Source: an uncultured Gemmatimonadales bacterium (lineage in GTDB: Bacteria; Gemmatimonadota; Gemmatimonadetes; Gemmatimonadales; GWC2-71-9). Taken from it: a stretch of 64,000 bases of DNA. Positions 13,598 through 40,999 of the stretch are shown in pieces. Within the stretch, counting starts at the first letter, position 1; each line of letters starts with the position of its first letter. The notes under the pieces were generated by a model that was given only the letters and a program-made list of their open reading frames with translations, did no database searches and was not told where the DNA came from. The stretch lies in contig CAVSQW010000002.1 in assembly GCA_963730185.1 (NCBI GenBank), forward strand, positions 1 through 64,000. Reading direction: 5' to 3'. A program made the translations under genes and the position numbers.

Positions 13598-14265
13598 TGC
13601 CGTTGGATGCCACCGACCAGCTGGGCCAGTGGACCCGGGATTTCGGCCGGAGCTACACCGACCGAAACACGATGAGCCCCGACGAGATGGACGCGGCCTT
13701 CGCGCTTCAGTTCGGCGTTCGGAAGTCGACCATTTACCGCGAGCTGGTGGGGCCGGCCCGGCTGCCGGCGGGCCGCGCGCTGGAGGTGGGCTGCAACATC
13801 GGGCTCCAGCTCCAGCTGCTGCGCCTCGCCAACCGACGTCTCGAGCTCCACGGGCTCGAGCCGCAGGAGTATGCCCTGGCCCGGGCCCGGGTCCTGGCGC
13901 CCGAGGTCAGCTTCCACCAGGGGACGGCGTTCGACATGCCGTTCGCCGACGCTTCGTTCGACCTGGTGTTCACGCACGGCGTCCTGATCCATCTGCACCC
14001 GCGCGATCTCCCGAAGGCCATCGGGGAGATGTGCCGGGTGAGCCGGCGGTTCATTCTCTGCCACGAGTACTACGCCCGCGAAACCACCGAGGTGCGCTAC
14101 CAGGGCAGCGACGGGCTGCTCTGGAAGACCGACTTCGCGGCCCGGTTCCGGGAGGCATGCCCGTCGCTTCAGGAGGTAGCGGTCCGCTACTACCCCTACA
14201 GCGATGCCTGCGGGGGTGCCGACTTGGTGGACCAGGTGGTCCTCTTCGAGCAGGGCGGGGCATGA
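13597..14265 (+). CDS. Pseudaminic acid biosynthesis-associated methyltransferase
   Basis: W..DFGRSYTDRN, LEVGCNIG, FTHGVLIH, EYY..LWKTDF. Confidence 0.8.
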   Translation: MPLDATDQLGQWTRDFGRSYTDRNTMSPDEMDAAFALQFGVRKSTIYRELVGPARLPAGRALEVGCNIGLQLQLLRLANRRLELHGLEPQEYALARARVLAPEVSFHQGTAFDMPFADASFDLVFTHGVLIHLHPRDLPKAIGEMCRVSRRFILCHEYYARETTEVRYQGSDGLLWKTDFAARFREACPSLQEVAVRYYPYSDACGGADLVDQVVLFEQGGA

Positions 14266-15245
14266 GCCTCCGGGCGGCGGTGATCGGCTGCGGCTTCATC
14301 GGGGCCGGCGAGGGCACAGCCGGGCTCGGCGCCCAGTCGCATGCGGCCGCCTGGACCGCGATCGCGGGAGTGGACCTCGTGGCGCTGGCCGACTCGGATC
14401 CGGAGCGGTTGGGCCGGGCCCAGGCCCGCTGGGGCGTGGCCGACGGCTTCCCGACGGCCGGCGCCTTGCTCGCCGCCGCCCGACCCGACGTGGTGAGCCT
14501 CTGCACCCCGGACCCGAGCCATGGACCGCTCCTCGCGGCGATTCTCGACACCCCGTCGGTGCGCGCGGTGCTGGCGGAGAAGCCCCTGGCGCTCGACCTC
14601 GACGAGGCCGGGCACCTGGTCCGGCGCGCCCGGGATCGGGGCGTGCGGCTCGCGGTCAACTACGGCCGCCGCTCGCTTCCGAGCCATCGGGCGCTCCGGC
14701 GGTGGATCGCGGGAGGTGGCCTGGGCACGGTCCAGTCGGTCACCGGACGTTACGTCCGGGGCCTCAAGCACAACGGCACGCATTGGCTCGACCTGGCCCG
14801 TTTCCTGGTCGGCGAAATCCGGTCGGTGCGGCCCCGTCCCGGCGAGCCGGTCGACGGACCCGATCCGACCATCGACGTGATGCTGGAGTTCGAGGGTGGT
14901 GCCCGGGGGTTGCTGACCGGACTCCGCGGGGTGGACTACGCCCTCTTCGAGATGGATCTCGTCGGGACCCGGGGCCGGGCTCGGATCCTGGAGGGCGGCC
15001 ACCGGTTCGAGATCTTCGCCGCGGGGGCGAGCCCGCGGTTTCCGGGATTTCGAGAGCTGCTGCCGGTGGAGGGCCCGGCGGGCGGGATCGACGATCTGGT
15101 CCGGCACCCCGCGGCGGATCTGATCGCCGCGCTGGCCGAGGGCCGGGAGCCTGCCTGCACCGGCGATGACGCCGTCGCCGCCCTCGCGCTGGCGACCTCC
15201 GCCATCGAATCGCTGGAGGGGCAGCATGCCAGCATCGGTCTTTAG
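14262..15245 (+). CDS. Gfo/Idh/MocA oxidoreductase
   Basis: AVIGCGFIG, SLCTPD..H, LAEKPLA, HNGTHWLD. Confidence 0.88.
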   Translation: MSLRAAVIGCGFIGAGEGTAGLGAQSHAAAWTAIAGVDLVALADSDPERLGRAQARWGVADGFPTAGALLAAARPDVVSLCTPDPSHGPLLAAILDTPSVRAVLAEKPLALDLDEAGHLVRRARDRGVRLAVNYGRRSLPSHRALRRWIAGGGLGTVQSVTGRYVRGLKHNGTHWLDLARFLVGEIRSVRPRPGEPVDGPDPTIDVMLEFEGGARGLLTGLRGVDYALFEMDLVGTRGRARILEGGHRFEIFAAGASPRFPGFRELLPVEGPAGGIDDLVRHPAADLIAALAEGREPACTGDDAVAALALATSAIESLEGQHASIGL

Positions 15246-16311
15246 CGTCCTCGGCGACCGGGGCGGCGCGGAAGCCGTGCTTCCGGTCCTCGAATCGCTC
15301 GCCGCCCGGGGAACCCGGGTCACGACAGTGGCCTGGGGGCCGGCGCGGGCGCTGCTCCGGGATCGGGGCCTGGCCTCGCTGAGCCTGGCGCCCACCCTCG
15401 CGCCCCGGGCCGTCCTGGCGGCGCTCGAGTCGGCTCGTGCCACCGCCTTGGTCACCGGGACCTCCTGGGGCGACGACCGGCCCGAGCCGCCGTTTCTGAC
15501 GGCCGCCCGGGAGCTCGGGGTGCCCTCGCTGGCGGTGCTCGACTTCTGGTCCAACTACGCCGAGCGGTTCGCCGGAGGGCTGCCGGACGAGATTGCGGTC
15601 ATGGACCAGCGAGCCCGGCACGAGGCCATCGCGGCGGGGCTCCCGCCGGAGCGGATCACGGTCACGGGAAACCCGCACTACGAGCGGCTGCTCGATCGCT
15701 TCGACGGGTTCGGACACTCGGCCCGGCTGGCCTTTCGGGAGCGGGTCGGGCTCTCCCGGCGCGACACGGCGGTTCTCTTCGTGTCCCAACCGCTCGGGGC
15801 GCTCTACGGCGACCGCCTGGGCTGGACCGAGACCGAGGTGCTGACCGCGGTGCGGGCCGGCCTGGAACGGGTCGCCGAATGGCTCGGCCACCGGCTGGTC
15901 CTGGCCATCCGCCCCCATCCCCGAGATCCCGCGTTGCCCAAACTCGACAGCAGCGACCGCGTGTTGGTGCGCCCGGCGCTCGACCACGACGCGATGGCCT
16001 GGGCGCTGACTACCGACCTGGTGGTGGGGATGACCAGCGCCGTGCTGGTGCAGGCGGCGCTGCTCGGGGCCCGGGTGGTCGCGATCCGGCCGGGCAGCGC
16101 GGCCGTCGGCGTGGGGCCGTCCCCGGGAGAGATGGTCACCGATCTGGCCGAGGTGCCGGCTGCGTTGTTCCGGGGTCTGGCCCGGCCGGCCAACGCCGAG
16201 CGCGACGCCTCGTGGACCGCGCTTCGCGCGGAGGCCCGCGGCGCCACCGAGCGGATCGTGGAGCGGATCGACGCCTTGGGGGCTTCGGCCCCGAGAGAGG
16301 TCATGGTATGA
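15226..16311 (+). CDS. GT-B-fold protein of unknown specificity
   Basis: DRGGA, VTGTS, VLDFWSNY, VTGNPHY, FVSQP, RPHPR, VGMTS. Confidence 0.6.
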   Translation: MPASVFSVLGDRGGAEAVLPVLESLAARGTRVTTVAWGPARALLRDRGLASLSLAPTLAPRAVLAALESARATALVTGTSWGDDRPEPPFLTAARELGVPSLAVLDFWSNYAERFAGGLPDEIAVMDQRARHEAIAAGLPPERITVTGNPHYERLLDRFDGFGHSARLAFRERVGLSRRDTAVLFVSQPLGALYGDRLGWTETEVLTAVRAGLERVAEWLGHRLVLAIRPHPRDPALPKLDSSDRVLVRPALDHDAMAWALTTDLVVGMTSAVLVQAALLGARVVAIRPGSAAVGVGPSPGEMVTDLAEVPAALFRGLARPANAERDASWTALRAEARGATERIVERIDALGASAPREVMV

Positions 16312-17585
16312 CGCGATTGGCCATCGACGGCGGCCGCCCGGTGCGGACCACGCCGTTTCCCGAGTACCGTACCATCGGCGCCGAGGAGCGGGACGCGGTT
16401 CTGCGGGTCCTGGAGAGCGGAGTGCTGTCGCAGTTCGTGGGCGTCGACGGTCCCGACTTCCTGGGAGGGCCCCGGGTTCGTGAGCTCGAGACGGCGTGGG
16501 CCGAGTACTTCGGCACCCGGCACGCGGTGGCGGTGAACTCGGCGACCAGCGGCCTCTCCGCCGCGGTGGGCGCCGCCCGGATCGGTCCCGGCGACGAGGT
16601 GATCGTGTCGCCGTACACGATGAGCGCCTCCGCCGCCGCCGCGATCGTCTATGGCGCGGTGCCGGTCTTCGCCGACATCGATCCCGAGACCTTCTGTCTC
16701 GACCCGGTGTCGGTCCGGGCTCGGATCACGCCGCGCACCCGCGCCGTCATCGCGGTCGACCTCTTCGGCCATCCGGCCGCCTGGGAGGAGCTTCGGACGA
16801 TCGGTCGGGAGCACGGCCTAGTGCTGATCGAGGATGCCGCCCAGGCGCCGGGCGCCCGGCTCGGCCATCGCTACGCCGGCACCCTGGGCGACCTCGGCGT
16901 CTTCAGCCTCAACTATCACAAGACCATCCACTCGGGCGAGGGTGGGGTGATCGTGACCGACGATCCCGACCTGGCCGAGCGCTTGCAGCTGATCCGCAAT
17001 CACGCCGAGGCCGTGGTCAAGGCTCGCGGCACCGACGACCTGGTGAATCTGGTGGGCTTCAACTTTCGGATGACGGAAATCGAGGCGGCCATCGCGTCGG
17101 AGCAGCTCCGGAAGCTCGACCGCCTGGTGCAGGCCCGGATCGACGCCTCCGACTATCTCTCGACCCGGCTGGCCGGGTTCCCCGGACTCGGAGTGCCGGT
17201 GGTCCGGCCCCGCGTTCGCCATGGCTATTACGTCTATCCGCTCCGGTTCGACGCCGGCCAGGCGGGCATGACCCGGGCCCGATTCGCGGCCGCCCTGCGG
17301 GCCGAGGGCATTCCCGTCCACGAGGGATACGTCGAGCCGCTCTACTGGCAGCCGATGTACCAGCGCGGCATTGGGATCGGCCGGGACGGGTTCCCGTTCC
17401 GCCAGCCCGGCCGCGAGCCGGTCCGCTATCCCCGCGGGCTCTGTCCGGTGACGGAGCGGATGCACCAGGAGGAGCTTCTCTACCTCACGGTCATCCACGC
17501 CCAGATGAGGCCGGCCGATCTCGACGACGTGATCGCCGCCTTCGAGAAGGTCCTCTCGGCGGCCGGGAGCGCGGTGGCCTCGTGA
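16308..17585 (+). CDS. DegT/DnrJ/EryC1/StrS aminotransferase (second)
   Basis: VNSATSGL, IEDAAQAPG, FSLNYHKTIHSGEGG, GFNFRMTE. Confidence 0.9.
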   Translation: MTRLAIDGGRPVRTTPFPEYRTIGAEERDAVLRVLESGVLSQFVGVDGPDFLGGPRVRELETAWAEYFGTRHAVAVNSATSGLSAAVGAARIGPGDEVIVSPYTMSASAAAAIVYGAVPVFADIDPETFCLDPVSVRARITPRTRAVIAVDLFGHPAAWEELRTIGREHGLVLIEDAAQAPGARLGHRYAGTLGDLGVFSLNYHKTIHSGEGGVIVTDDPDLAERLQLIRNHAEAVVKARGTDDLVNLVGFNFRMTEIEAAIASEQLRKLDRLVQARIDASDYLSTRLAGFPGLGVPVVRPRVRHGYYVYPLRFDAGQAGMTRARFAAALRAEGIPVHEGYVEPLYWQPMYQRGIGIGRDGFPFRQPGREPVRYPRGLCPVTERMHQEELLYLTVIHAQMRPADLDDVIAAFEKVLSAAGSAVAS

Positions 17586-18181
17586 CCCTCGTCCTGCCGT
17601 CCGACGCACTCCGCGCTCACTATCGGGCCCGCTTCCTCGCCCACGGCGACGCCGCCCTCGCGACCCAGATGAGCCGCGAGGGCCAGGCGTTCCGGTTCCG
17701 GAAGCTGCTCGAGATCGGCAATCTCGACGATCGCTCGGTGCTCGACGTCGGCGCCGGGTTGGGCGACTTCGTCCCCTTCGTCCGGGCCCGGTATCCGCGG
17801 GCGCGATACGAGGGTGTCGACTTGGTGCCCGAGATGGTGGCCTGCGCCAGCGAGAAGTATCCGAATCTTCGCTTCCGGACGGCGGACCTGCTGGTCGCCC
17901 CGCTGCCCGAGCGCTACGACTACGTGCTGCTTTCCGCCGTATTCAACAACGCGACCGAGGACCCGACCGGGCATCTCGAGCGGCTGGTGGCGCGGAGCTT
18001 CGAGCACTGCCGGATCGGGCTCGGGTTCAACTTCATCTCGACCCACGTGAACGTGACCGAGCCGGAGATGGCCTATCACGACCCGGCTCGCGTGCTCTCG
18101 TTCTGTCTCACCCTGAGCCGGAAGGTCGTCCTGGCGCACCACTACGAGCGGTGCGACGTGGCGGTCTTCGCCTATCGATGA
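17582..18181 (+). CDS. Class I SAM methyltransferase
   Basis: VLDVGAGLGD, YEGVDLVPEM, YDYV. Confidence 0.82.
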   Translation: MTLVLPSDALRAHYRARFLAHGDAALATQMSREGQAFRFRKLLEIGNLDDRSVLDVGAGLGDFVPFVRARYPRARYEGVDLVPEMVACASEKYPNLRFRTADLLVAPLPERYDYVLLSAVFNNATEDPTGHLERLVARSFEHCRIGLGFNFISTHVNVTEPEMAYHDPARVLSFCLTLSRKVVLAHHYERCDVAVFAYR

Positions 18182-19149
18182 GTGCTCCGCCGTTGCCGCT
18201 CGTCGGGACCGTCGACCCAGTCCGGTGGGACCGGCTGGTCGACGAGTCGCCCGAGGGGTCGGTGTTCTGCCGAACCACGTTCCTGGAGGCGCTGGACCGC
18301 CCGCACGAGCGGCTGGCGCTCGGCGACGGTGCGTCGATTCCGGCCGGCGCGGTGGTGTTCCGGGAGGCCGACGGGTCGGTGGCCCGAGCGCCGCTGCCCT
18401 TCAGCCTGTACCAGGGAGTGCTGCTCCCCGGCGAGGTGGCCGTAATGCCGGCCCACCGGCGGGTCCGCGAGACGCTGGAGCGGACCGCCGCGCTGCTCGA
18501 CGCGCTCGCGGGGCAGGGCGCGCTCTCGTTCTGCCTCCACCCCCGGTTCCCGGACGTCCGGGCCTTCTCTTGGTTCAACTACCACCGCCCGGAGGCGGGA
18601 CAGTTCCGGATCGACGTCCGCTACACCGGCGAGATCGCCCTCTCTCGGGAGGGTGGGCTCGACGCCTTTCTCGCCGGGTGCCGGAGCGTGCGCCGACAGG
18701 AGTATCGTCGGGCCGCGGCCCGATTCACGGTCGGCGCGAGTGACGAGCTCGAGTTGCTGGACGAGCTCCACGAACGGACTTTCGCCCGCCAGGGCCTGGA
18801 ACGATCGCCGCGGGAGCGGTCGCTGCTGCGATCACTGACCCGCGCGGCGCTGACCCACGAGTTCGGCGAGGTGCTCGTCGCCCGGGACGGCGACGGCCGG
18901 GCTGCGTCGGCGGTGCTGACGCTGTTCGACCGGCGGAGCACCTACTACCTGGTGGCCGCGAACGATCCCGACTACCGCTCCGCCGGCACCTCGACGCTGC
19001 TCTTCGTGGAGATGGTGCGCCGGGCGCTCGAGCGTGGCTCGGAGACGGTGGACGTGGTGGGGATGAACTCGCCGTCCCGTGGCGACTTCAAGGCCAGCTT
19101 CGGCGCGATGCCGGTTCCGTATTACGTGGCGCACTGGGAGGGCCGATGA
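18178..19149 (+). CDS. GNAT / FemAB-like acyltransferase
   Basis: WDRLVDESPEGSVF, YYLVAANDP..RSAG, VGMNSP..FKASFG. Confidence 0.75.
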   Translation: MSAPPLPLVGTVDPVRWDRLVDESPEGSVFCRTTFLEALDRPHERLALGDGASIPAGAVVFREADGSVARAPLPFSLYQGVLLPGEVAVMPAHRRVRETLERTAALLDALAGQGALSFCLHPRFPDVRAFSWFNYHRPEAGQFRIDVRYTGEIALSREGGLDAFLAGCRSVRRQEYRRAAARFTVGASDELELLDELHERTFARQGLERSPRERSLLRSLTRAALTHEFGEVLVARDGDGRAASAVLTLFDRRSTYYLVAANDPDYRSAGTSTLLFVEMVRRALERGSETVDVVGMNSPSRGDFKASFGAMPVPYYVAHWEGR

Positions 19150-19916
19150 GGATCGTGGCCGTGATCCAGGCCCGGATGACGTCCACCCGGCTCCCGGGCA
19201 AGGTGCTCGCGGAGGTGGAGGGCGAGCCGATGCTGGCCCGGGTGGTGACCCGGCTCCGAGCGGCCGAGCGGGTCTCGGACGTGTGGGTCGCGTGCACCGA
19301 CCGGGTCGAGGACGATCCGGTGGCGGGCCTGGCCCGGCGGCTCGATGCCGGCCTGTTCCGCGGGTCCGAGCGCGACGTCCTGGGACGCTACGTGGCCACC
19401 GCCCGGGAGGCCCGGGCCGACGTCGTGATCCGGGTCACGGCCGACTGCCCGTTGATCGATCCGCGGGTGGTGGACCGGGTGGTCGGGGTGCTGCTCGACG
19501 GGCGCTCGAGCCTCGACTACGCGGCCAACGTGCTGCGCCGGACCTATCCGCGGGGACTCGACATCGAGGCGCTCTATGCCGATGCGCTACTCCGGGCGGA
19601 GCGGTTCGGGATCACGCCGGAGGCCCGCGAGCACGTGACGCTCGCGATCCGGACCGACCCGGAGGGCCGGTTCGCCACGGGCAACGTCGAGGCCGAGGCC
19701 GACGACAGCGACCTCCGCTGGACGGTCGATACGGCCGCCGACCTGCACCATGTCCGACAACTCTATCGCGAGGTCGGCCTGGCCGATCCCGCCCTGGACT
19801 ATCGCCGGGTGGTGGCCTGGTGCCGGAGCCATCCGGCCCTGGCCCGCCGGGATGATGATCCGTTGACCTGGGACCCGGCCCGACGCCGGGATTCCCCTCT
19901 CCACGCACAGGGGTAG
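19146..19916 (+). CDS. SpsF/PseF-type cytidylyltransferase (copy 2)
   Basis: QARMTSTRLPGKVL, RGSERDVL, RVTADCPLIDP, REHVT, RWTVDT. Confidence 0.85.
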   Translation: MRIVAVIQARMTSTRLPGKVLAEVEGEPMLARVVTRLRAAERVSDVWVACTDRVEDDPVAGLARRLDAGLFRGSERDVLGRYVATAREARADVVIRVTADCPLIDPRVVDRVVGVLLDGRSSLDYAANVLRRTYPRGLDIEALYADALLRAERFGITPEAREHVTLAIRTDPEGRFATGNVEAEADDSDLRWTVDTAADLHHVRQLYREVGLADPALDYRRVVAWCRSHPALARRDDDPLTWDPARRRDSPLHAQG

Positions 19917-19920: not shown

Positions 19921-21837
19921 ATGCCGGGAACACCAGACTCCGCGCTCGAATCGGGCGGGCTCCTCATCGCCGAGCGTCTCGAACACGAAGGGCGCCTGGT
20001 CGATGCGGCCAAGGCCTATCAATCGGTGCTCGAGGTGGCCCCCGACCATCCCGAGGCGCTCTTCCGGTTGGGCCGGACCATGGGTCGCCTCGGTCAGCGC
20101 GACCTGGAGGTCGCCTTTCTCGGCCAGGCCATCGCCCGCTCGCCCGGGCAAGCCGGGTATCACCAGGCCCTCGGCGACGTGCTGATCGGGTCCGGGCTCG
20201 CCGCCGACGCGGCCGAGTGCTACCGGGAGGCCGGCCGGCTCGCGCCGGAGGCTCCGGAGCCCCGACTTGGCCTGGCCGACGCCTATCTCGATCTCGGCCG
20301 CGGCACCGAGGCACGCGGAATCCTCGATGCGGTCGCCGACCAGGGCGCGCGAGCCCAGCGGGCTCGTGCCCGGCTGCTGCTCGGTGAGCGGCGGTTCGAG
20401 GAGGCGACCACGGCTTTCGTGGCCTACCTCCGCGAGAATCCCGACGATCCGGCCGCGTTCTTCTACTTGGGGGTGGCCCTCCAAGGGCGGCAGATGCTGG
20501 AGGCCGCGGCCGCCAGCTACGCCCAGGCCTTGGTTGGCGATGCCACGCTGTTCGAGGCTCACGCCAATCTGAGCACCGTGCTGGCGGCCATGGGGCAGGC
20601 GGCCGACGCCTTGCACTACGCCGACGAGGCGATCGCCCTGGTGCCGGAGCGGGCCGGACTCTACCTGAACCGGGCCAACGTCAAGCGCGACCTGGGCGAG
20701 CATGCGGCCGCCATCGAGGATTATCGGGCCGCGCTGGCGAAGGATCCCGAGTTTGCCGAAGCGTGGTCGAGCCTCGGAAACCTCTATCACGATCTGGGGC
20801 GGTGGTCCGACGCGCTCGATGCTCACCAGCGGGCGGTAGCCGCCGGGCCCGCCCTGGCGCAGGCGCACTGGAACCGGTCCTTCACTTTGCTCGCGAACGG
20901 GGACCTCGCCACGGGCTGGGACGAGTACGAGTACCGGTTCGAGACCGAGGCGGCGGCCCCCGAGCCCCGCGACTTCCCCTGGCCGCGATGGCGGGGTGAT
21001 CCGCTCGCCGGCAAGTCGATCCTGGTGTGGCGAGAGCAAGGCCTCGGCGACGAGATCCTGTTCGCGAGCTGCGTGCCCGACCTGATCGAGGCGGGGGCGG
21101 CGATCACCTTCCTCGCGACCGACCGGTTGGTCGAGCTCGTTGGCCGGGGATTGCCGGGGGTCGACGTCAGGCCGGACGGCCCCGAGGCCCTCGCTCCGGA
21201 CGCCCGGTTCGACTACCAGGTCCCGGTCGCCAGTCTCCCCCGCTGGCTCCGCCGGAGCCGGGCGGCGTTCGGCGCCGGGCGGAGCCCGATCGCGCCCGAC
21301 CCGGCCCGAGTGGCCGCCTGGCGCGAGCGGTTGGCCGCCCTTGGCCCCGAGCCCAAGGTCGGGATCTGTTGGCGAAGCGGCCTGCTGACCCCCGATCGCA
21401 CCCAGCACTACGCCGAGCTGGCGGCCTGGTCGCCCCTGCTGGTGACGCCCGGCGTCACCTGGGTGAACCTGCAATACGACGAGTGCGAGGCGGAGCTGGT
21501 GGAGGCGGAGGCGCGGTGGGGCGTAACCATCCACCGATGGCCGGAATTCGATCTCCGAGGCGATCTGGAGACGACCGCAGCGCTGATCAGCGAGTTGGAC
21601 GCGGTGGTAACCGCCCCGACCGTGGTGAGCTCCTTCTCGGGAGCGCTCGGGATCCTGACCTGGCAGATCGACAACGGGTCGGACTGGACCGCCCTCGGCG
21701 AGGCTCGGTCGCCCTGGTTCCCGAGCGTGGGGCTGATTCGGCGGGCGCCGGGGACGCTGGGGTGGGAGCCGGCGACCCAGCGGGCAGCGGCGGAATTGGA
21801 CACCTGGCGCCGGATGCGTCCGGCGGCTGGGCGCTAA
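19921..21837 (+). CDS. flmG: FlmG-type TPR + GT-B glycosyltransferase (paralog 3, longest TPR array)
   Basis: TPRs, WREQGLGDE, GICWRSG, WVNLQYDEC, SPWFPS; directly upstream of flagellin. Confidence 0.78.
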   Translation: MPGTPDSALESGGLLIAERLEHEGRLVDAAKAYQSVLEVAPDHPEALFRLGRTMGRLGQRDLEVAFLGQAIARSPGQAGYHQALGDVLIGSGLAADAAECYREAGRLAPEAPEPRLGLADAYLDLGRGTEARGILDAVADQGARAQRARARLLLGERRFEEATTAFVAYLRENPDDPAAFFYLGVALQGRQMLEAAAASYAQALVGDATLFEAHANLSTVLAAMGQAADALHYADEAIALVPERAGLYLNRANVKRDLGEHAAAIEDYRAALAKDPEFAEAWSSLGNLYHDLGRWSDALDAHQRAVAAGPALAQAHWNRSFTLLANGDLATGWDEYEYRFETEAAAPEPRDFPWPRWRGDPLAGKSILVWREQGLGDEILFASCVPDLIEAGAAITFLATDRLVELVGRGLPGVDVRPDGPEALAPDARFDYQVPVASLPRWLRRSRAAFGAGRSPIAPDPARVAAWRERLAALGPEPKVGICWRSGLLTPDRTQHYAELAAWSPLLVTPGVTWVNLQYDECEAELVEAEARWGVTIHRWPEFDLRGDLETTAALISELDAVVTAPTVVSSFSGALGILTWQIDNGSDWTALGEARSPWFPSVGLIRRAPGTLGWEPATQRAAAELDTWRRMRPAAGR

Positions 21838-21862
21838 AGCTGGAGCGGGGGGATGCCGAAAC
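21835..21862 (+). promoter_or_regulatory. Sigma28-like promoter of flagellin, TAAA-N16-GCCGAAAC
   Basis: Matches the FliA/SigD consensus; same spacing as three other sites in the window. Confidence 0.7.
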
Positions 21863-21978
21863 CTAGGGAGACGGCTGAAGAGGGCGGTGCACCCGGAATG
21901 CACCGAACCCCCTGAACGCCACCGGACGGTCGGGAAGAAGCCCGACCCGGACACCCTAGAACAAGGAGCGGTACCCAC

Positions 21979-22794
21979 ATGGCTGACAGCATTGCTCTCA
22001 CCTCCGGCATTCGGAACAACCTGCTGAGCCTCCAGAACACGGCGGGGCTCATCTCCACCACGCAGCAGCGCCTGGCCTCCGGCCTCAAGGTCAACAGCCC
22101 GATCGACGACGCCAGCGCCTTCTTCACCGCCAGCGCCGCTCGTGGCCGGGCCAGCGATCTGGCCGGGCGGAAGAACGAGATCGGCGAGGCCATTCAGACC
22201 ATTAAGGCCGCCTCCGACGGCGTCGACTCGATCTCGCAGCTGATCGACGCGGCGAAGGGTGTCGCGGAGTCGGCGCGATCGGCCACGACGGCCGGCCGCT
22301 CGACCCTGGCCGCGCAGTTCAACGACATCCTGACCCAGATCGACTACACCGGGGCCGACGCGAAGTACAAGGGTACCAACCTGCTCGCCAGCGGCTCGCT
22401 CACGGTCAAGACCAACGAGGACGGCACCTCGAAGATCTCGCTCAACGGCTTCGACGCGACCTCGACGGTCGGTCTGTCGGTGTCGGCCATCGCGGTCAGC
22501 ACCTGGACGGTGGACTCGGCTATCGACGCCGCGGTCAGCCAGCTCACCGCCGCGCAGGCGACCCTCCGGACCCAGGCCTCCACGCTGGGCGCCGTGTCGA
22601 GCACCCTGACCATTCGGGACTCGTTCCTCGACAACCTGAAGAACGTCCTCCAGGAAGGCGCGGACAAGCTCACGGTCGCCGACCAGAACGCGGAAGGCGC
22701 CAACCTGCTTTCGCTGCAGACCCGTCAGCAGCTCGGCGTCATCTCGCTGAGCCTCGCGAACCAGTCGCAGCAGGCAATCCTCCGGCTCTTCTAG
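21979..22794 (+). CDS. fliC: Flagellin, short alphaproteobacterial type (271 aa)
   Basis: IRNNLLSLQNT..TQQRLASGLKVNSPIDD..FFTA; ADQNAEGANLLSLQTRQQLG..LSLANQSQQAILRLF; AAGGAG RBS. Confidence 0.95.
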   Translation: MADSIALTSGIRNNLLSLQNTAGLISTTQQRLASGLKVNSPIDDASAFFTASAARGRASDLAGRKNEIGEAIQTIKAASDGVDSISQLIDAAKGVAESARSATTAGRSTLAAQFNDILTQIDYTGADAKYKGTNLLASGSLTVKTNEDGTSKISLNGFDATSTVGLSVSAIAVSTWTVDSAIDAAVSQLTAAQATLRTQASTLGAVSSTLTIRDSFLDNLKNVLQEGADKLTVADQNAEGANLLSLQTRQQLGVISLSLANQSQQAILRLF

Positions 22795-22812
22795 GCGGAC
22801 TCGGGGATAGCC

Positions 22813-22837
22813 AGGGGGAGGGATTAGCCCTCCCCCT
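22813..22837 (+). terminator. 10-bp GC hairpin after flagellin (no U-tract; terminator or mRNA stabiliser)
   Basis: AGGGGGAGGG-attag-CCCTCCCCCT. Confidence 0.55.
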
Positions 22838-22866
22838 CATTCCCTCGGGATGGCAGGAATGAGAGT

Positions 22867-23502
22867 ATGACACCAATCACTGACGGTTTAGGAATAGCGC
22901 CGCCCCAGACCGCTCCTCGAGAGCGGCTGGGCGTTGCGCTTTTCGGTGCCACCCCACGGGGGCGGTCCGGGGGGAACCCCGGGCCGGTCTCCGGCGCGGG
23001 TGCAGTCGGCCGGTTCGGTGACCTGGGACGGCTGTTCGAGTCCCGTGGCCATCAGTGGGCGGAAGCGGTGAAGCTGCGGCAGCAGGACGGGAAGCTCAGC
23101 CAGCTCGCCCGGCAGATCGACTCCGTGACCACGAACCTGGTCCCGGTCAAGCTCTACCCGCCTTATCCGCCGGACGAGTCGCGGCGAGCGCAGGCGATCC
23201 GGGATTTCAATGGTGTGGCGGCCGAGGTCGCGAAGGTGGTCGGTCCCGAGATCGGGGCCGGACTGGCGCCCCTGCCCAACCAGGCAACCACCGGCGAGGC
23301 GGAGCGGGCGATCACCGGCCTCTCCCAGGCCGGCCAGGCGGTGGCGGCGGCCCGGCAGGACATCGCGGCGGCGGCCTCGAGCGGAACCGTGCCCGAGTCG
23401 GCGCTGGCCAAGCTGAGCGCCCAGGTGGGCGGGGCCCTGGCCCGGACTGGCGGCGCGACCCTGTCCCGGGGCTTCGAGCTTCGGATTCAGGAGGTCCTCT
23501 GA
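22867..23502 (+). CDS. Hypothetical protein with VKLYPPYPP motif, coupled to flbT
   Basis: 211-aa ORF whose stop overlaps the flbT ATG; helical pattern. Confidence 0.7.
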   Translation: MTPITDGLGIAPPQTAPRERLGVALFGATPRGRSGGNPGPVSGAGAVGRFGDLGRLFESRGHQWAEAVKLRQQDGKLSQLARQIDSVTTNLVPVKLYPPYPPDESRRAQAIRDFNGVAAEVAKVVGPEIGAGLAPLPNQATTGEAERAITGLSQAGQAVAAARQDIAAAASSGTVPESALAKLSAQVGGALARTGGATLSRGFELRIQEVL

Positions 23503-23903
23503 TGCCGCTTCGGATCGCGCTCAAGCCCGAGGAACGACTCATCGTGGGCGGCGCCGTCGTCCGGAACGCCGGCCGGCGGGGCTTGCAGCTCATGGTCGAG
23601 AACGACGTGCCGATACTGCGGGGCAAGGAAGTCATGGGGCTCGCCGATGCGACCTCTCCGTGCCGACGGATCTACTTCGCGATCCAGCTGATGTACGTCG
23701 ACCCGGAGGACCTCGCGAATCACGGGGCCCTCTTCGCCGAGTTGATGGCCGAAGTGGCGGAGGCGTCACCCAGCATGCGGGGCCGACTGGACGAGATCAC
23801 CGACCTGATCACCGCCGGAAAGTACTACCAGGCGCTCAGGCTCACCCGCCAACTCATCGAGTACGAAGAGGAATTGATCAGCCATGTCGCGAGTCGCCGC
23901 TGA
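23502..23903 (+). CDS. flbT: Flagellin regulator FlbT
   Basis: LRIALKPEERLIVGGAVVRN, PILRGKEVM, SPCRRIYFAIQLMY, YYQAL. Confidence 0.9.
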   Translation: MPLRIALKPEERLIVGGAVVRNAGRRGLQLMVENDVPILRGKEVMGLADATSPCRRIYFAIQLMYVDPEDLANHGALFAELMAEVAEASPSMRGRLDEITDLITAGKYYQALRLTRQLIEYEEELISHVASRR

Positions 23904-24273
23904 CGCTTACACGGATGTCGAGAAGATCACCGCCAGTGGCCGGCAGCTCGAGGCCTCGGCACTCTTCCGCGCCGCGCGGGCCCTCCAGGTAGCTCAGGAA
24001 TCATGGGGACAAGAGGGCACGGAGCAGCGGCTCGAGCAGGCCCTCCAGCTCAATCAGCGGCTCTGGACTTTCTTCCAGGCCGAGCTCAGTGCCGACGACA
24101 ACCCCCTCCCGCTGGAGCTCAAAGCGAATCTCCTGAGCCTGGTCGAGTACATCGACAAGCGGACCTTCGAAGTGATGGCCGCGCCCGCGGCGGAGAAGCT
24201 CAACGTGCTGGTCGCGATCAACCGGAACGTCGCCGCGGGTCTGGCGTCGCAGCCGAGCGGCGTGGCGGCCTGA
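23884..24273 (+). CDS. flaF: Flagellin regulator/chaperone FlaF
   Basis: RQLEASAL, NQRLWT, DNPLPLELKANLLSL, INRNVAAGL. Confidence 0.9.
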   Translation: MSRVAADAYTDVEKITASGRQLEASALFRAARALQVAQESWGQEGTEQRLEQALQLNQRLWTFFQAELSADDNPLPLELKANLLSLVEYIDKRTFEVMAAPAAEKLNVLVAINRNVAAGLASQPSGVAA

Positions 24274-24507: not shown

Positions 24508-25413
24508 CTACCCCAAATAGTCCGTCAGGCTCAACCCTAGGAGCCGACTGGTGGCCGAATACGATGCCTGGACCGTCGTCTGCAGCGACAGGAGCCGGGT
24601 GATCGCCTCCTCGGGGGCCACGTCCTGGACGCCGGTCTTGGCGTTCAGGGTATTGGTTCGAACGGTGGCGTTGCTGGCCTGGGTGCTGTTGATCTGGGCG
24701 CTGGTGGTACCGGTCTGAGCCTGGGACAAGAGGAGGCCGTCGGCGGTGGCCGCGACCGCCTGGGCGGCGGTCTGGACCTGGGCCTCAGTCTGGTTGTTGG
24801 CGGGGTCGACCGCGTCGCGGAGCGCTTTCAAGGCCGCGATCGCGGGTCCAACGAACTGATCGCCCGTGTGGTTGGGCGTCACCTGGACCCCGGCCGCGAT
24901 CTCGACCTTCCGGACGATGGTGCTGCCCTGGTAGTCGCCGTAGGTCGCGCCGGCGGTCGGGTCGAAGGGCGGAGTGGTGCTGGCCGCCCCGCCCAGGATG
25001 TACTCGCCGCCGATCTTGGTGTTGCCGAGCGAGATGGCCTCGTCCAACAACCGGCTGAGCTGGTCGGCCGCCACCAGACGTTGCTGGGTCTGGTCGGTGG
25101 TGTAGGGCGGGTCGCCCTTGGCGAAGCTCAGGGCGAAGTTCTGGCCCTGCTTGACGAGGTCGTTCACCTGCTGGGCGACCGCCTCCTCGGCCCCGAGCCG
25201 GACCTGAGCGTTGGTGGCATTCTTGTCGTACTGGTCCAGAGCCCGGATTCCCCGGTCGAACCGCATCACCTGAGCCGCCCCGGCCGGATTCTGCTCCACC
25301 GACGTGAATTTCTTGCCGGTCGCGATCTGGCTTTGCAGGTCGATCAACCGGCTGAGATTACCTTGGAGGTCTCTGAGGGTCTGATCGGTTCGGAAAGAGT
25401 TGGTGACCCGCAC
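24508..25413 (-). CDS. flgL: Hook-filament junction protein FlgL
   Basis: MRVTN..LQSQIATGKK..NP, GEYILGG, C-terminal TTVQASYSATSRLLGLSLTDYL. Confidence 0.88.
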   Translation of the reverse strand: MRVTNSFRTDQTLRDLQGNLSRLIDLQSQIATGKKFTSVEQNPAGAAQVMRFDRGIRALDQYDKNATNAQVRLGAEEAVAQQVNDLVKQGQNFALSFAKGDPPYTTDQTQQRLVAADQLSRLLDEAISLGNTKIGGEYILGGAASTTPPFDPTAGATYGDYQGSTIVRKVEIAAGVQVTPNHTGDQFVGPAIAALKALRDAVDPANNQTEAQVQTAAQAVAATADGLLLSQAQTGTTSAQINSTQASNATVRTNTLNAKTGVQDVAPEEAITRLLSLQTTVQASYSATSRLLGLSLTDYLG

Positions 25414-25505: not shown

Positions 25506-26930
25506 ATGGCGACGATTCTCTGCGTCGATGACGAGCCGTCGGTCGGTGTCGTCATCGAGGCGGCCCTGACCAAACTCGGCCACACCCCCATCCTCGCCTC
25601 CGGGGTCGACGAGGCCATGAAGGCCGTCGGCCGCCAGCAGTTCGACCTGATCATCTCCGATTATCGGATGCCCAACGCGACCGGGCTGGACCTCCTCTCC
25701 CAGTTGGAGAAGGAGAGCTATCAGATCCCGGTCATCATCATGACGGGCTACTCGTCGGTCGAGCACGCCGTCATGTCGCTCCGGAGCGGGGCGATCGACT
25801 ACCTCACCAAGCCGATCAGGGCCGAGACGCTGCGGATCGCGGTGAACCAGGCCCTCGAGGTCATCCGGCTCAAGAAAGAGAACGAGACCTTTCGGCAGGA
25901 GCTGTCGAGCCTCCGGGGCCGGCGGCAGATCCTGGGGGAGAGCGGGGCGCTCCGCCGGGTCCTCGAGGTGGTTTCCACCGTCGCCCCGACCAAGGCCACC
26001 ATCCTCCTTCAGGGCGAATCCGGGACCGGGAAGGAACTGGTCGCCCGCGCCATCCACGAGCAGAGCCCCCGGCGGGACCGGCCGTTCATCACCATCAATT
26101 GCGCGGCGATGCCCGAAGGGTTGGTCGAGAGCGCGCTGTTTGGCCACGAGAAGGGGGCCTTCACCGGCGCGACGGCCCGCACCCAGGGCGCCTTCGAGCG
26201 GGCCAACGGCGGCACCTTGCTGCTGGACGAAGTCTCGGAGATGCGACTCGATCTCCAGGCCAAGCTGCTTCGTGTCATTCAGGAGCAGGAGTTCGAGCGG
26301 GTGGGTGGGCAGCAGCCGATCCGGGTCGACGTCCGTCTCGTGGCGACCACGAATCGGGACCTCAAGGCCGACGCGGAAGCGGGGAAGTTCCGCCAGGACC
26401 TCTACTACCGGCTCAACGTGGTGCCGATCCTGATGCCGCCCCTGCGGGAGCGGCTGGAAGACATCCCGGCGCTGGTCCATCACTTCGTGGGCCGCGCGGC
26501 GCAGCAGCTCGGGGTCGAGGTGAGCGGCGTCGCTCCCGAGGCGATCGCCGCGATGCAGGGCCGGACCTGGCCTGGCAACATCCGCGAGCTGGCCAACGCG
26601 GTGGAACGGGCCGTCATTCTCTCCCGCGGTGGGGTCCTCGGTGCCAGCGCCTTCGTCGACGACAGCCTCCGAATGAGCGCGCCGCCGAGCCTGACGGCGC
26701 CGAGTCCGGCCCATGGCTCCGCGGCGCCGGCGAGGTCCGCCGCGACCGGGGGTGATCCCGAGAACATCATTCCCGACAGCTTCAACCTCGACGAGCTGGA
26801 GCGCATCGCGATCCAACGCGCCTTGGTGGCCACCGGCGGCAACCGGACTCGCGCGGCCAAGCTGCTCGGGATCAGCGAGCGAACTCTGCGCAACAAGCTC
26901 AACTCTCCCAAGGCGGCTTCGCGCCCCTGA
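25506..26930 (+). CDS. Sigma54-dependent response regulator (REC-AAA+-Fis HTH), probable flagellar activator
   Basis: ILCVDDE..SDYRMP, GESGTGKE, ESALFGHEKGAFTGA, WPGNIREL, GNRTRAAKLLGISERTL. Confidence 0.92.
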   Translation: MATILCVDDEPSVGVVIEAALTKLGHTPILASGVDEAMKAVGRQQFDLIISDYRMPNATGLDLLSQLEKESYQIPVIIMTGYSSVEHAVMSLRSGAIDYLTKPIRAETLRIAVNQALEVIRLKKENETFRQELSSLRGRRQILGESGALRRVLEVVSTVAPTKATILLQGESGTGKELVARAIHEQSPRRDRPFITINCAAMPEGLVESALFGHEKGAFTGATARTQGAFERANGGTLLLDEVSEMRLDLQAKLLRVIQEQEFERVGGQQPIRVDVRLVATTNRDLKADAEAGKFRQDLYYRLNVVPILMPPLRERLEDIPALVHHFVGRAAQQLGVEVSGVAPEAIAAMQGRTWPGNIRELANAVERAVILSRGGVLGASAFVDDSLRMSAPPSLTAPSPAHGSAAPARSAATGGDPENIIPDSFNLDELERIAIQRALVATGGNRTRAAKLLGISERTLRNKLNSPKAASRP

Positions 26931-27148: not shown

Positions 27149-27445
27149 ATGATTCGCGGACTGTTTGGAGCCAACACGTTGTCGTCGATGCTGCGCGGCG
27201 GACTCGAGGAGACGAGTGCCACCCAGCGGGGGATCGGCGAGCGCGTTTCGAAGACGATCGAGACCAGCACGAGCGTCGATTTCACCAGCACCATGCAGGC
27301 GCAGCAGGCCAAGGCCCGAGCGACCGAAGCCGACCTGCAGCGCGACATGGCGTCGCTGGCCGACACCCAGCTGCGGTACGAGGCCGACGCCCAGCTCCTC
27401 AAGGAGGTCTATACCCGCCTCCGGACGGCGATCAGCCGTGGCTAG
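27149..27445 (+). CDS. flgB: Divergent FlgB-like rod protein
   Basis: Position before flgC; C-terminal DLQRDMASLADTQLRYEA; lacks ANNLAN. Confidence 0.65.
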   Translation: MIRGLFGANTLSSMLRGGLEETSATQRGIGERVSKTIETSTSVDFTSTMQAQQAKARATEADLQRDMASLADTQLRYEADAQLLKEVYTRLRTAISRG

Positions 27446-27863
27446 GATCGAAGGCGCGCCGATCACGCCGCGTCCGGAACGGACCTTCATGCGGTCGCTG
27501 GCCATCAGCTCGGAAGGGATGGCCACCCAGCAGGCGTTTCTCGACATCATCGCCGAGAACATCAGCAACGCCGACACGACCCGAACGGCCGAAGGTGGAC
27601 CGTATCGGCGGAAGGTGGCGGTGACCGTGCGCGATCCCCGCACCGGCGATCTCTCGGTCCGGGTCGTGGAGGACCAGACCCAAGGGCGGATGGTGCACGA
27701 TCCGACCCATCCCGATGCCGATCAGGACGGCAACGTGTTCTACCCCAACGTCGACATCAACAACGAGATGGTCGACCTGATGCTGGCTCGGCGGATCCAC
27801 GAGGCGAACGTCACCGCCTTCCAGGCCGCCAAGCAGATGCTCAGGCGGGCCATCGACATCTGA
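27438..27863 (+). CDS. flgC: Rod protein FlgC
   Basis: IAENISNADTTRT..GGPYRRK, DPTHPDAD..G.V.YPNVD. Confidence 0.92.
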   Translation: MARIEGAPITPRPERTFMRSLAISSEGMATQQAFLDIIAENISNADTTRTAEGGPYRRKVAVTVRDPRTGDLSVRVVEDQTQGRMVHDPTHPDADQDGNVFYPNVDINNEMVDLMLARRIHEANVTAFQAAKQMLRRAIDI

Positions 27864-27882
27864 CGCGGACGGAGCGGCATTC

Positions 27883-28161
27883 ATGGGGATCCACGGAGTG
27901 AGCGGCGCGGCCGGCGCCTACGGTCGGATCGGCATCACGCCTCGGCCGGCGCCGGGGCATCGCCCCGAGTCGGCCGCGGGGGCCGCCGGCGGGAGGTCGG
28001 CCGGCCAGTCGGGCGACGTGCGGTCGGTGCTGACCCCCGACGAGCTGGCCTACTTCTCCGAGCTCGAGAAGCTCGGCCCGCTGACCTACGGACCGCGCGC
28101 CGGCAAGGCCGACGCGGCACCCGCGCCCTCGCTGGGGCAGCGGATCGACGTCAGGGCCTGA
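27883..28161 (+). CDS. Small hypothetical protein ending LGQRIDVRA
   Basis: GGAG RBS; fills the gap between flgC and fliE. Confidence 0.65.
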   Translation: MGIHGVSGAAGAYGRIGITPRPAPGHRPESAAGAAGGRSAGQSGDVRSVLTPDELAYFSELEKLGPLTYGPRAGKADAAPAPSLGQRIDVRA

Positions 28162-28164
28162 CCG

Positions 28165-28468
28165 ATGACGGCCCCGATTGGTCCGCCGTCAGGGCATCGT
28201 CGGCCCGATCGAACGATCGGGCGGCGGGATTCCGCTTCAGGACAACGGGCCGTCGTTCGGCGACCTCTTCAAGAAGGCCCTGAACGACACCTCGGGTCTC
28301 GAGGATCATGCCAAGGACACCATCGCGTCGTTTCTCCGCGGTGACCCGGTCGAGCTCCATCAGGTCATGGCGGCGAGCGAGGAAGCCTCGATCTCGCTGG
28401 AGCTCCTCGTCGAAGTGCGCAACAAACTCACTGACGCGTATCGCACCATCATGAACCTGCAGATCTAA
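28165..28468 (+). CDS. fliE: FliE (start uncertain; possible frameshift near 28185)
   Basis: SFGDLFKKAL, VELHQVMAASEEASISLELLVEVRNKLTDAYRTIMNLQI; the ATG at 28165 is out of frame with the body. Confidence 0.85.
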
Positions 28469-29958
28469 TGGCCAACGAGCTGGTACAGAATCTGAGCGGC
28501 GCGGTGCAACGGATGCCGCCTCAACGCCGTCTGCTGATCTTCGGGTTCGTCGGGGTCCTCCTCGCCGCGGTCGCGGGCGTGGGATTCTGGGCCGCGAATC
28601 CGGAGTGGGTCGTCCTCTACAGCGACGTCTCCCTGGGCGAGGCCGCCCGGATGACCGACGCACTCGACAAGGGGGCGATCGGCAACAAGCTGGGCCCGGA
28701 TGGGACGGCGGTCCTGGTGGCCCGGGGCGATCTGGCCCGGGCTCGCGTGTTGCTGGCCAAGTCGCAGCTCCCGACCAGCGGCCGTCCCGGGTTCGAGCTC
28801 TTCGAGCAGAAGCAGGACTGGGGGATGACCGACTTCACCCAACGGATCACCTACCAGCGGGCGCTCGAAGGCGAGCTCAGTCGGACCATCGAGCAGACTT
28901 CCGGGGTGGATCGGGCAGAGGTCCACCTCACGATTCCAGAGCCGGGCGCGCTCCGCCGCCTCGACCGGCCGGCCAAGGCGGCGGTGCTGCTCAAGATGCG
29001 ACGCGGCTACCTGCCGGCGCCGGGGGCGGTCCAGGGGATCATCGCGATCGTGGCGAACAGCGTCGATCGCCTCTCGCCCGAAAACATCGCGGTGACCGAC
29101 GAGACCGGCCGGCTCCTGTCCGGCGCTACGGACGACGGCTCCATGGTCGGGGCCGCATCGCACCGGATCGAACTTCAGCGCTCGATCGAGGACTACGTCG
29201 CCAACAAGGCCGAGCAGCTGCTGGCCTCGGTGAGCGGGCTCGGCGCCCCCAAGGTGCAGGTCTCGGCCCAACTCAACTTCGACCAGGTGGAGCGGACGAT
29301 CGAGTCGTTCGATCCCGACGGCCAGGTGCTCCAGAGTGAGGGGCGGAGCGAGACCGAAGCGCCCAGCGACGGCAGCGGCACCCAGACGGTCATCAACAAC
29401 ACCTATCAGAACTCCCGCAAGCTCGAGAAGGTCGTGAGCGGCGGCACCGGCATTACCCGTCTGACGGTCGCGGTCCTGGTCGACGAGCGGGCCATCCGGG
29501 CCGACACCGTCAGCACCGAGTCCCGCGATCAGCGGCTGGCCCAGGTGTCGTCGTTGGTCAAGGACGCGATCGGCTTCGACAGCACTCGGGGCGACCGGAT
29601 CACGGTCTCCGCGGTGCCGTTCGAGGTGGCGGCGATCGACTCCAGCACCCCGCCGGCGCCGCGCGACATCGTGGGCACGGCGGAGCGGTTCGTGCGTCCG
29701 GTGATCGGGATCGTGGCGATCGCGGCGCTCCTGCTGCTGGCCTTTCGCGGGCTGAAGGCCCTGCAAGTGGCCGGAGCCCGGACCGCCCAGGCGTCGTTGG
29801 CCCAGCAGCAGGCGGCCGCGGCGGTGCCGTCCGGCGAGGCGCCGCCACTCGGGCCGACGCCGGGCGCGGTGCTGCTCAAGAACAAGGTGGTCGAGGAGAC
29901 CGCGGCCAAGCCGCAGCTGATGGCGCAGGTGGTCCGCGCCTGGATGACAGAGGGGTGA
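28468..29958 (+). CDS. fliF: MS-ring protein FliF
   Basis: GFELFEQ..WGMTDF..YQRALEGELSRTIE; two TM segments. Confidence 0.95.
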   Translation: MANELVQNLSGAVQRMPPQRRLLIFGFVGVLLAAVAGVGFWAANPEWVVLYSDVSLGEAARMTDALDKGAIGNKLGPDGTAVLVARGDLARARVLLAKSQLPTSGRPGFELFEQKQDWGMTDFTQRITYQRALEGELSRTIEQTSGVDRAEVHLTIPEPGALRRLDRPAKAAVLLKMRRGYLPAPGAVQGIIAIVANSVDRLSPENIAVTDETGRLLSGATDDGSMVGAASHRIELQRSIEDYVANKAEQLLASVSGLGAPKVQVSAQLNFDQVERTIESFDPDGQVLQSEGRSETEAPSDGSGTQTVINNTYQNSRKLEKVVSGGTGITRLTVAVLVDERAIRADTVSTESRDQRLAQVSSLVKDAIGFDSTRGDRITVSAVPFEVAAIDSSTPPAPRDIVGTAERFVRPVIGIVAIAALLLLAFRGLKALQVAGARTAQASLAQQQAAAAVPSGEAPPLGPTPGAVLLKNKVVEETAAKPQLMAQVVRAWMTEG

Positions 29959-29962
29959 TCGG

Positions 29963-40995: not shown

Positions 40996-40999
40996 GCCG

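Follow-up and report, generated by a model that had tools for sequence, protein, structure and literature searches.

Probable replacement of the flagellar filament module by a fliC-X-flbT-flaF cassette in one genus of the Gemmatimonadales

Introduction

How does an alpha-type flagellin, followed by flbT and flaF, come to lie in a flagellar gene cluster with FliA (sigma-28) outside the Alphaproteobacteria, and how could its synthesis be controlled there? The question is raised by a stretch of 64,000 nucleotides (hereafter the window) from an uncultured Gemmatimonadales bacterium, positions 1 to 64,000 of contig CAVSQW010000002.1 in assembly GCA_963730185.1, which carries the genes fliC, X, flbT and flaF in a row, X being the gene between fliC and flbT. 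The source genome, which is 81.8% complete, is labelled G000 here and the window G000:C2:1-64000. An earlier sequence-only reading had described this locus as a chimera in which the filament, its chaperone and translational control as well as its glycosylation machinery were swapped in as a block and re-promotered.

Genes were called with Pfam and NCBIfam profiles against curated cut-offs, and the flagellin was compared with the PDB. These analyses uphold the order and positions of the four genes, the identities of FlbT and FlaF, and the presence of fliA, flhF, flhG and a sigma-54 activator in the same cluster, all reported earlier. The flagellin scores best with the alpha-type NCBIfam models PRK12688 and PRK14708, both under cut-off, and its top PDB matches are Caulobacter Flj flagellins (E ~2e-19). 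FlbT meets PF07378 (134 bits versus a cut-off of 27) and stays under the NCBIfam equivalog cut-offs (110.9 and 106.7 versus 125 and 153), while FlaF meets both PF07309 (110.5 versus 23.6 bits) and NF009435 (116.6 versus 91). The stop codon of X overlaps the start of flbT, and X is translationally coupled to it.

Probable exchange of the filament module

Among 301 genomes of the phylum, FlbT was found in all six of the window's genus and in none of the 295 other Gemmatimonadota. FliD occurred in 69 of the 301 and in none of the genus, and no sampled genome carries both modules. CsrA is missing from 22/22 genus genomes versus present in 5/5 FliD-type relatives, and no flagellin of canonical score was detected in 22 genus genomes (maximum 59.5 bits versus 112-118 for the FliC of the relatives). 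Within the source genome, at its completeness of 81.8%, neither profile searches for FliD, FliS, FliW and a second flagellin nor tblastn with the relatives' FliC, FliD, FliS and FliW gave a match. The only flagellin-type genes there are fliC at 21979-22794 and flgL; the canonical FliD cap, FliS chaperone and FliW/CsrA pair were not detected, and the rest of this genome yielded no canonical fliC-fliD-fliS locus.

The sister genera, which are of the FliD type, share the junction of flgL, the activator gene and flgB with the window's genus. Their gene order is flgL, fliW, an optional glycosylation island, fliC, fliD, fliS and flgM, mostly then cheY-cheZ, with csrA nearby (fliW..fliC-fliD-fliS-flgM was seen in G021, G043, G105, G196, G065 and G094). 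The order in the window's genus is flgL, the inverted flaF-flbT-X-fliC, the glycosylation island and flgM-cheY(-cheZ). On the simplest reading, the fliW site was the point of entry of the cassette, and fliW, the old fliC, fliD, fliS and csrA were lost. As a separate observation, FliD-type relatives harbor one or two open reading frames (ORFs) of ~140-150 and 57-99 residues between fliS and flgM (L058:10011-10442, L056:18137-18977, L049:1807-2232), which were not found in the source genome; the longer one may be FliT-like.

In the FliG tree and in a quick version of a FliA tree, the genus groups with FliD-type Gemmatimonadota. The flagellin tree, for which 21 of 63 collected rows were left out as partial or redundant and seven full-length X-family proteins were added, places it with Nitrospirota and Azospirillum/Methylobacterium flagellins. 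The two sets of trees are incongruent, and an approximately unbiased (AU) test on 27 rows rejects a single clade of Gemmatimonadota flagellins (p=0.015). The nearest flagellin loci are 17 from Gemmatimonadota (77-83% identity), followed by two from Nitrospirota (50%) and one from Pseudomonadota (35%); across the genus, the flagellin is ~80% identical. Distribution, synteny, trees and AU test together make it very probable that the filament module was replaced by fliC-X-flbT-flaF in the ancestor of this one Gemmatimonadales genus, in agreement with the earlier proposal of a filament swapped into the native FliA-type flagellum of a non-alpha lineage. The cassette has a host-like GC content (0.65-0.72; 0.84-0.93 at third codon positions, GC3), which suggests that the import is old.

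FliA, FlgM and the promoter of fliC

The sigma-28-like promoter predicted in front of fliC is well conserved: both boxes, TAAAG at 21835 and GCCGA at 21855, are kept in 18/18 genus fliC leaders examined, a set that includes near-duplicates. The stop codon of the upstream glycosyltransferase-like gene overlaps the -35 box. The same consensus lies 5' of the genome's own flgM and motA, of 4/7 FliD-type fliC genes and of 8/8 Nitrospirota cassette fliC genes, and a loose form of the motif precedes 31 of the 4468 predicted genes of the source genome, including fliC, motA and flgM. A sigma-70 scan gave no site before fliC. A sigma-54-like element, TGCAC-N5-ATGCA near 21888, was rejected as fliC promoter, as it occurs in the leader of the source genome only and is not conserved.

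The sequence-only reading had recognised neither FliS nor FliD nor FlgM. The absence of the former two extends to the source genome, that of FlgM is true of the window only, for a divergent flgM that aligns with the FlgM of the relatives lies on another contig (G000:C4:152433-152768). A hidden Markov model (HMM) built from FlgM of six FliD-type relatives, without genus sequences, matches this gene at 1e-20, the next best match being at 0.054. Its lack of a Pfam FlgM match is a false negative (weak Pfam matches appear in 4/22 genus genomes), and the assignment was made via orthology and synteny: the FlgM of the relative G065 passes the Pfam cut-off, and the order flgM-cheY-cheZ is common to relatives and genus. 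The 50 terminal bases of C4 agree with window positions 5175-5224 at 49/50, and flgM is therefore probably located in the same cluster. With FlgM present, the FliA/FlgM checkpoint is intact, and the source genome has FliA, FlgM and a sigma-28 promoter on fliC, as in the canonical hierarchy.

The cassette in other phyla

FlbT was also detected in 15/151 Nitrospirota sampled. Sixteen FlbT-bearing genomes of this phylum encode FliA over cut-off in 15 cases, FlgM in all 16 and FliD over cut-off in none. Hence, the hybrid is a recurring non-alpha system and not unique to the source genome. As the Nitrospirota cassettes already possess sigma-28-type promoters (8/8 leaders), FliA and FlgM, re-promotering is unlikely and the cassette likely arrived sigma-28-ready. 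The presumed alphaproteobacterial affinity was not borne out either. The closest FlbT relatives outside the Gemmatimonadota are of the Nitrospirota/Syntrophales type (38-58% identity; in a second comparison relatives, one of them named Syntrophales, reach 53-59%), and alphaproteobacterial FlbT is lower, with 31.6-39.5% identity among the 30 plasmid matches listed. The cassette is likely of Nitrospirota/Desulfobacterota type. One Nitrospirota genome has an ORF just before the cassette (L017:2633-3001) that is FliS-like by eye only.

The leader RNA of fliC

FliD-type relatives display a CsrA-type GC-x-x-GGA-x-GC loop ~40 nt 5' of the start codon (7/7 canonical leaders), whose GGA loop we take to be the CsrA motif. 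Cassette leaders have an AGAA(U/G/A)-loop stem in its place. With at least five pairs, this stem is found in 11/14 genus, 11/11 Nitrospirota, 2/3 metagenome, 3/7 alpha and 1/7 canonical leaders, compared to a background of 20/4464 leaders of the source genome; the three alpha leaders, with an AGAAA loop, are those of Erythrobacter, Rhodovastum and Marinovum. In a 24-sequence alignment, 7/7 pairs of hairpin 1 show compensatory change and 86.7% of cells are paired, compared to 30-57% in slid alignments and with 0/500 shuffles as high, a figure that is somewhat inflated because the control ignores relatedness and the alignment is anchored on the loop. Hairpin 2 (CCU-AGAAN-AGG), which closes on the Shine-Dalgarno sequence, was independently predicted by RNAalifold from a 24-sequence alignment. 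Rfam gave no match at the fliC leader up to E=1. Since FlbT is reported to bind flagellin 5' untranslated regions (PMC3930126), the AGAA leader hairpins are the obvious candidate for its operator, and the fliC leader probably contains a FlbT site.

The gene X

X, which like the leader RNA had not been identified in the earlier reading, belongs to no Pfam or NCBIfam family at the thresholds used, its match to Pfam Flagellin_N is out of register and non-significant (E 0.03), and the ESM Atlas held no usable match. It carries a KLYPPYP..ESRR loop, an instance of the family motif KxYPP[YF]P..R. Some Nitrospirota encode in this position, flanked by fliC and flbT, a divergent flagellin of full length that shares the KxYPP[YF]P motif. 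The motif is inserted where the first D1 helix turns into the second (ND1a-ND1b), presumably a subunit-contact surface. An X-type gene separates fliC from flbT in 16/16 Nitrospirota genomes (PP[YFW] in 15, one variant), and in 4/4 metagenome loci it neighbours one or the other of these genes.

A profile search returned 653 representatives of 50% clusters at E<=1e-3. The 151 members examined form a gradient from full-length flagellins to truncated forms: 61 match a structural-flagellin HMM at E<1e-3 (best to 1e-29), and the N-terminal D0 motif is kept in seven and absent from X. Residues K95, P98, P99 and R107 are 99-100% conserved in this set, a value that is partly circular because the search profile already contained the motif. 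The full-length members P0232 and P0146 score above the cut-off of Pfam Flagellin_N, full-length intermediates connect X to structural flagellins by BLAST (E 2e-8), and in the tree the full-length members are sister to a group of cassette and Azospirillum-type flagellins (support of 95 in the Shimodaira-Hasegawa-like approximate likelihood ratio test, SH-aLRT). A predicted model of X (predicted local distance difference test, pLDDT, 71.5) has disordered residues 1-50 (1-47 with low confidence) and D1-like helices at 51-171; in a fold search, 12 of its top 20 matches were flagellin or FlgL D1 (Z 8.1-8.9). Homology to the D1 helices of flagellin is thus seen via the full-length members, and intact D0 ends for polymerising are missing. 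Judged from the full-length intermediates, the HMM matches, the tree, the loss of D0 and the D1-like model, X is by its sequence a decayed flagellin paralogue that has kept one binding loop.

A short X subfamily of the Nitrospirota (~160 residues; L064, L065, L066, L069, L070, L072, L073) has a conserved G-x-x-[IV]-N-x-K-[IV]-like tail in place of the flagellin-like C-terminus.

Glycosylation genes

The glycosylation machinery need not have come with the filament block, as had been supposed. The FliD-type sister genus represented by G094, which belongs to the same family, carries pseB-C-G-H-I at the corresponding site and with an unchanged gene order (PseB 70%, PseI 71% identical), and because this operon is found at the same site next to a FliD-type module, it is likely resident and not part of the imported cassette. 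The FlmG-like gene, whose product contains tetratricopeptide repeats (TPR), is one of several paralogues and lies directly 5' of fliC in 15/16 genus loci with enough flank, being missing in L004. Its product is 36% identical to an Azospirillum protein encoded beside the flagellin and 33% identical to a paralogue of a FliD-type relative; NCBIfam is without a FlmG model.

Proposed mechanism and alternatives

The best explanation of the whole, towards which we lean on the strength of the sequence comparisons, is a swapped cassette that operates as follows. The native sigma-54 activator would drive the early genes, and FlgM would hold FliA until the hook is complete; export of FlgM would then free FliA, which would transcribe fliC-X-flbT-flaF from one promoter, the hairpin after fliC keeping the three downstream products scarce. 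FlbT would bind both AGAA loops and lock the second hairpin over the ribosome site, and would thereby do at the AGAA leader the job of CsrA on the GGA loop at the same position in the relatives. X, with most polymerising parts lost, would serve as co-repressor of FlbT through its invariant PP[YF]P loop, as does FljJ in Caulobacter. Repression would lift once FlaF has brought X and the flagellin to the export gate, and the resident pse operon and the TPR glycosyltransferase would modify the flagellin. FlbT-FljJ co-repression and the chaperone role of FlaF are described for Caulobacter (PMC7591256); by analogy, X could be a FljJ-like co-repressor, a role that we assign tentatively and for which the case is nearly balanced.

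Several observations weigh against this explanation, in addition to the inflated covariation and the partly circular conservation mentioned above. The AGAA hairpin as defined is absent from 4/7 alpha leaders, and FlbT activates, rather than represses, flagellin translation in rhizobia and Brucella. The PP[YFW] gene was not seen in six alpha loci, a direct hhalign comparison between the X alignment of the genus and structural flagellins is non-significant (probability 0.3%), and unrelated helical bundles match the X model as well (Z up to 10.3). Resolution is poor in the trees of FlbT and FlaF, where alpha branches are long and one FlbT of alpha type lies within the non-alpha group, so that these trees do not single out a donor of the cassette. 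In addition, the source assembly is 81.8% complete with a frameshifted fliI, and without FliD an identified cap is missing from the system.

This last point leads to a different role for X in the same swap, namely that of a filament polymerisation factor, a flagellin-derived cap that replaces FliD like Caulobacter FlaY, with FlbT sensing flagellin itself. None of the X-bearing genomes tested has FliD (0/6 genus, 0/16 Nitrospirota over cut-off), X alone among the unexplained genes always accompanies the cassette, its PP[YF]P insertion lies at the presumed subunit-contact turn, and a hook checkpoint is already supplied by FlgM. Moreover, Caulobacter FlaY has been called a FliD analogue (PMC13277936; bioRxiv 2024.09.25.614892), and in the Rhodobacterales cluster fliC-flaF-flbT-CP1 a mutant in the fourth gene, CP1, secretes FliC and builds no filament, although CP1 was not found in the Phaeobacter exoproteome, which makes the analogy between X and CP1 a loose one (both in PMC11974857). 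However, many X members have only 160-180 residues without both D0-like ends, which would leave little to grip the filament tip, and the translational coupling of X to flbT also argues against a cap. Such a function is conceivable, yet we are inclined to doubt it. Alternatively, X may be a minor hook-proximal adaptor that starts the foreign flagellin on the native FlgL and has no regulatory role. This would accord with the flagellin nature of its full-length members, with one X cluster annotated as FlgL-like by its source, with the long stem branch of the genus FlgL (0.82 versus ~0.3 in sister pairs), as if the junction had adapted, and with the hook-proximal FljJ of Caulobacter (PMC7591256); but the D0 motif is lost in most X members and the conserved loop is inferred to point away from the filament core, and we regard an adaptor as improbable.

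The other alternatives concern the cassette as a whole. If the FlbT/FlaF module were old in several Gracilicutes lineages, its distribution could result from differential loss without recent import, as might be suggested by the host-like GC content and by the genus forming its own long-stemmed clade without close donor. Yet FlbT is absent from the 295 other Gemmatimonadota, both modules never co-occur in a sampled genome, and the position of the genus FliG and FliA among FliD-type lineages would require many parallel losses, so this scenario is very unlikely. Hardly credible, finally, is a decaying flagellum in the source strain with the cassette as a relic. A one-base insertion in fliI, the apparently split fliK and a lower-GC 5-kb stretch that interrupts a TPR gene at the contig start could be read in this way, but fliI reads through in the relatives examined, the flagellin with its promoter and leader is conserved in the genus, and indels in the assembly would fit a low score for completeness combined with few contigs. 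The preferred explanation remains the swapped cassette with control by FlbT, X and the leader.

Layout of the locus and further observations

The features of the window are compiled in Table 1. The hairpin 3' of fliC lacks a U-tract in the source genome; a strong hairpin folds in 15/15 intergenic regions, for which no shuffle control was run, and is predicted to be an mRNA stabiliser or partial attenuator. The gap between flaF and flgL (24274-24507) contains purine-rich and pyrimidine-rich repeats and a long imperfect inverted repeat around a GC hairpin, likely a bidirectional terminator. The long stem branch of the genus FlgL (24508-25413) possibly reflects adaptation to the new filament.

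Table 1. Features of the flagellar locus in the window, with coordinates, strand and basis of assignment.
Feature	Position	Strand	Basis
Pseudaminic-acid-type sugar operon: pseB, pseC, pseG-like, GNAT pseH-like, pseI, two cytidylyltransferases, methylases, DegT	8275..19916	+	profiles; same order and site in G094
TPR-repeat glycosyltransferase-like protein, FlmG-like by architecture and position	19921..21837	+	TPR Pfam matches
Sigma-28-type promoter, CTAAAG-N15-GCCGAAAC	21834..21862	+	18/18 genus leaders
Leader hairpin 1, (A)AGAAG loop, candidate FlbT operator	21928..21947	+	covariation
Leader hairpin 2 (CCU-AGAAC(A)-AGG), pairs into Shine-Dalgarno AGGAG	21955..21968	+	RNAalifold, 24-sequence alignment
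fliC, short alpha-type flagellin, 271 aa	21979..22794	+	profiles, PDB, tree
Strong GC-rich hairpin 3' of fliC stop	22813..22837	+	folding
X, apparent degenerate flagellin paralogue, 211 aa	22867..23502	+	family search, model, tree
flbT	23502..23903	+	PF07378
flaF	23884..24273	+	PF07309, NF009435
flgL, native, convergent with cassette	24508..25413	-	TIGR02550 above cut-off
Sigma-54-dependent activator, native, heads basal-body cluster	25506..26930	+	profiles; same junction in FliD-type relatives
Native basal-body, hook and export cluster flgB..flgK, including flhF, flhG, fliA	27149..54582	+	profiles
fliA	47018-47782	+	TIGR02479, 230 versus cut-off 189.6

Within the basal-body cluster, fliO and fliP are fused in one ORF of 405 residues (39778-40995), a fusion shared by several relatives. 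fliI (31603-32944) is split in two frames by the insertion near 32341, either an assembly error or a strain-level loss, and the fliK region (33890-35547) consists of two overlapping frames (33890-35152 and 35038-35547), where G188 has one ORF of 692 residues. Window positions 1-5174 are of lower GC content (0.60-0.70) and contain small phage-like ORFs, two LicD-family genes, a methyltransferase and a GT2 gene; this stretch abuts a TPR gene whose 5' part ends contig C4 and is either an inserted element or an assembly join. Sigma-54-like GG-N10-GC motifs occur near 27091, 5' of flgB (the strict pattern in 3/13 other loci), and 5' of flgM (G000:C4), where the motif was seen by eye in five genus leaders beside the sigma-28 site. 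On contig C3, a 359-residue protein with weak EF-hand-like repeats (G000:C3:63704-64783; L138:2705-3784, minus strand) is preceded by a sigma-28-like motif 35 nt upstream. Used as query, it was found in 7/10 genus genomes, 0/10 FliD-type relatives and 0/6 Nitrospirota; it is a possible late flagellar export substrate and unlikely to be an essential cap because it is absent from two good genus genomes.

Relation to known systems and significance

One close precedent is the FlbT-FljJ-FlaF-FlmG system of Caulobacter crescentus (PMC7591256, PMC3930126), which has in common with the genus a short alpha-type flagellin, FlbT, FlaF, a specialised flagellin paralogue and a TPR glycosyltransferase with pseudaminic-acid genes, and lacks FliD and FliS. 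In contrast to the RpoN/FlbD/CtrA control of Caulobacter, the genus has its flagellin under a sigma-28-type promoter with FliA and FlgM. Thus, alpha-type flagellin, flbT and flaF without FliD/FliS are found as in the Caulobacter type, its RpoN-transcribed flagellin and lack of FliA/FlgM are not. The genus also has a single structural flagellin, and its paralogue X is truncated and bears the PP[YF]P loop. FlaY/DUF1217 was not recognised (PF06748 in 0/5 genomes, in a search without working control). Canonical FliA/FlgM flagella, as known from Bacillus subtilis and Campylobacter, represent the condition of the sister genera. With them the genus shares the basal body, sigma-54 activator, FlhF/FlhG, FliA, FlgM and the sigma-28 promoter; it differs in that fliW, csrA, fliS, fliD and canonical fliC were not found and AGAA loops replace the GGA loop. 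In flagella of this type, a FliW-CsrA-flagellin switch operates.

Two further systems offer partial parallels. The Rhodobacterales fla1 cluster fliC-flaF-flbT-CP1 likewise packs four filament genes into a compact cassette that travels as a whole, and lacks FliD, but its fourth gene is not a flagellin derivative, and it is under CtrA control without FliA (PMC11974857). The RpoE6 cluster flgK-flgL-fliC2-fliD-fliS of Azospirillum brasilense is a mirror image, a canonical filament module with an unusual sigma factor in an alphaproteobacterium; there it provides a minor flagellin beside the alpha system, whereas in the genus no filament source other than the alpha-type cassette was found (PMC12826043 for the Azospirillum cluster). 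Co-presence of FlaF and FlbT has been noted (PMC13277936), and the supplements of that study, which map both across phyla, may already show the spread. In the literature searched, which did not cover subscription journals, no account was found of FlbT/FlaF under FliA/FlgM or of the module swap, and neither the X family nor the AGAA element was found described. Each named part is known; the combination, the swap, the X family and the AGAA element are new as far as the search went. A bolder generalization, which seems rather unlikely as it stands, would be that flagella draw on two complete, mutually exclusive and interchangeable modules, FliC/FliD/FliS/FliW/CsrA with GGA leader and alpha-type FliC/X/FlaF/FlbT with AGAA leader, the second of which plugs into FliA/FlgM flagella of several non-alpha phyla; X would then be a cap reinvented from a duplicated flagellin and the tandem AGAA hairpin a general FlbT element.

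Control by FlbT/FlaF has been treated as an alphaproteobacterial alternative to FliA/FlgM. Here, a single flagellum combines both layers, and does so in a Gemmatimonadales genus as well as in roughly one in ten of the Nitrospirota sampled (15/151). Next to sister genera with the old module, the replacement is unusually clean, gene for gene and RNA site for RNA site, and the swap shows an exchangeable unit of filament, cap, chaperone, translational regulator and operator. RNA recognition by FlbT becomes testable through the proposed 20-nt hairpin pair, which is also present in 3/7 alpha leaders, and so does the polymerisation of a filament without FliD and FlaY, for which X is the single candidate in the cassette.

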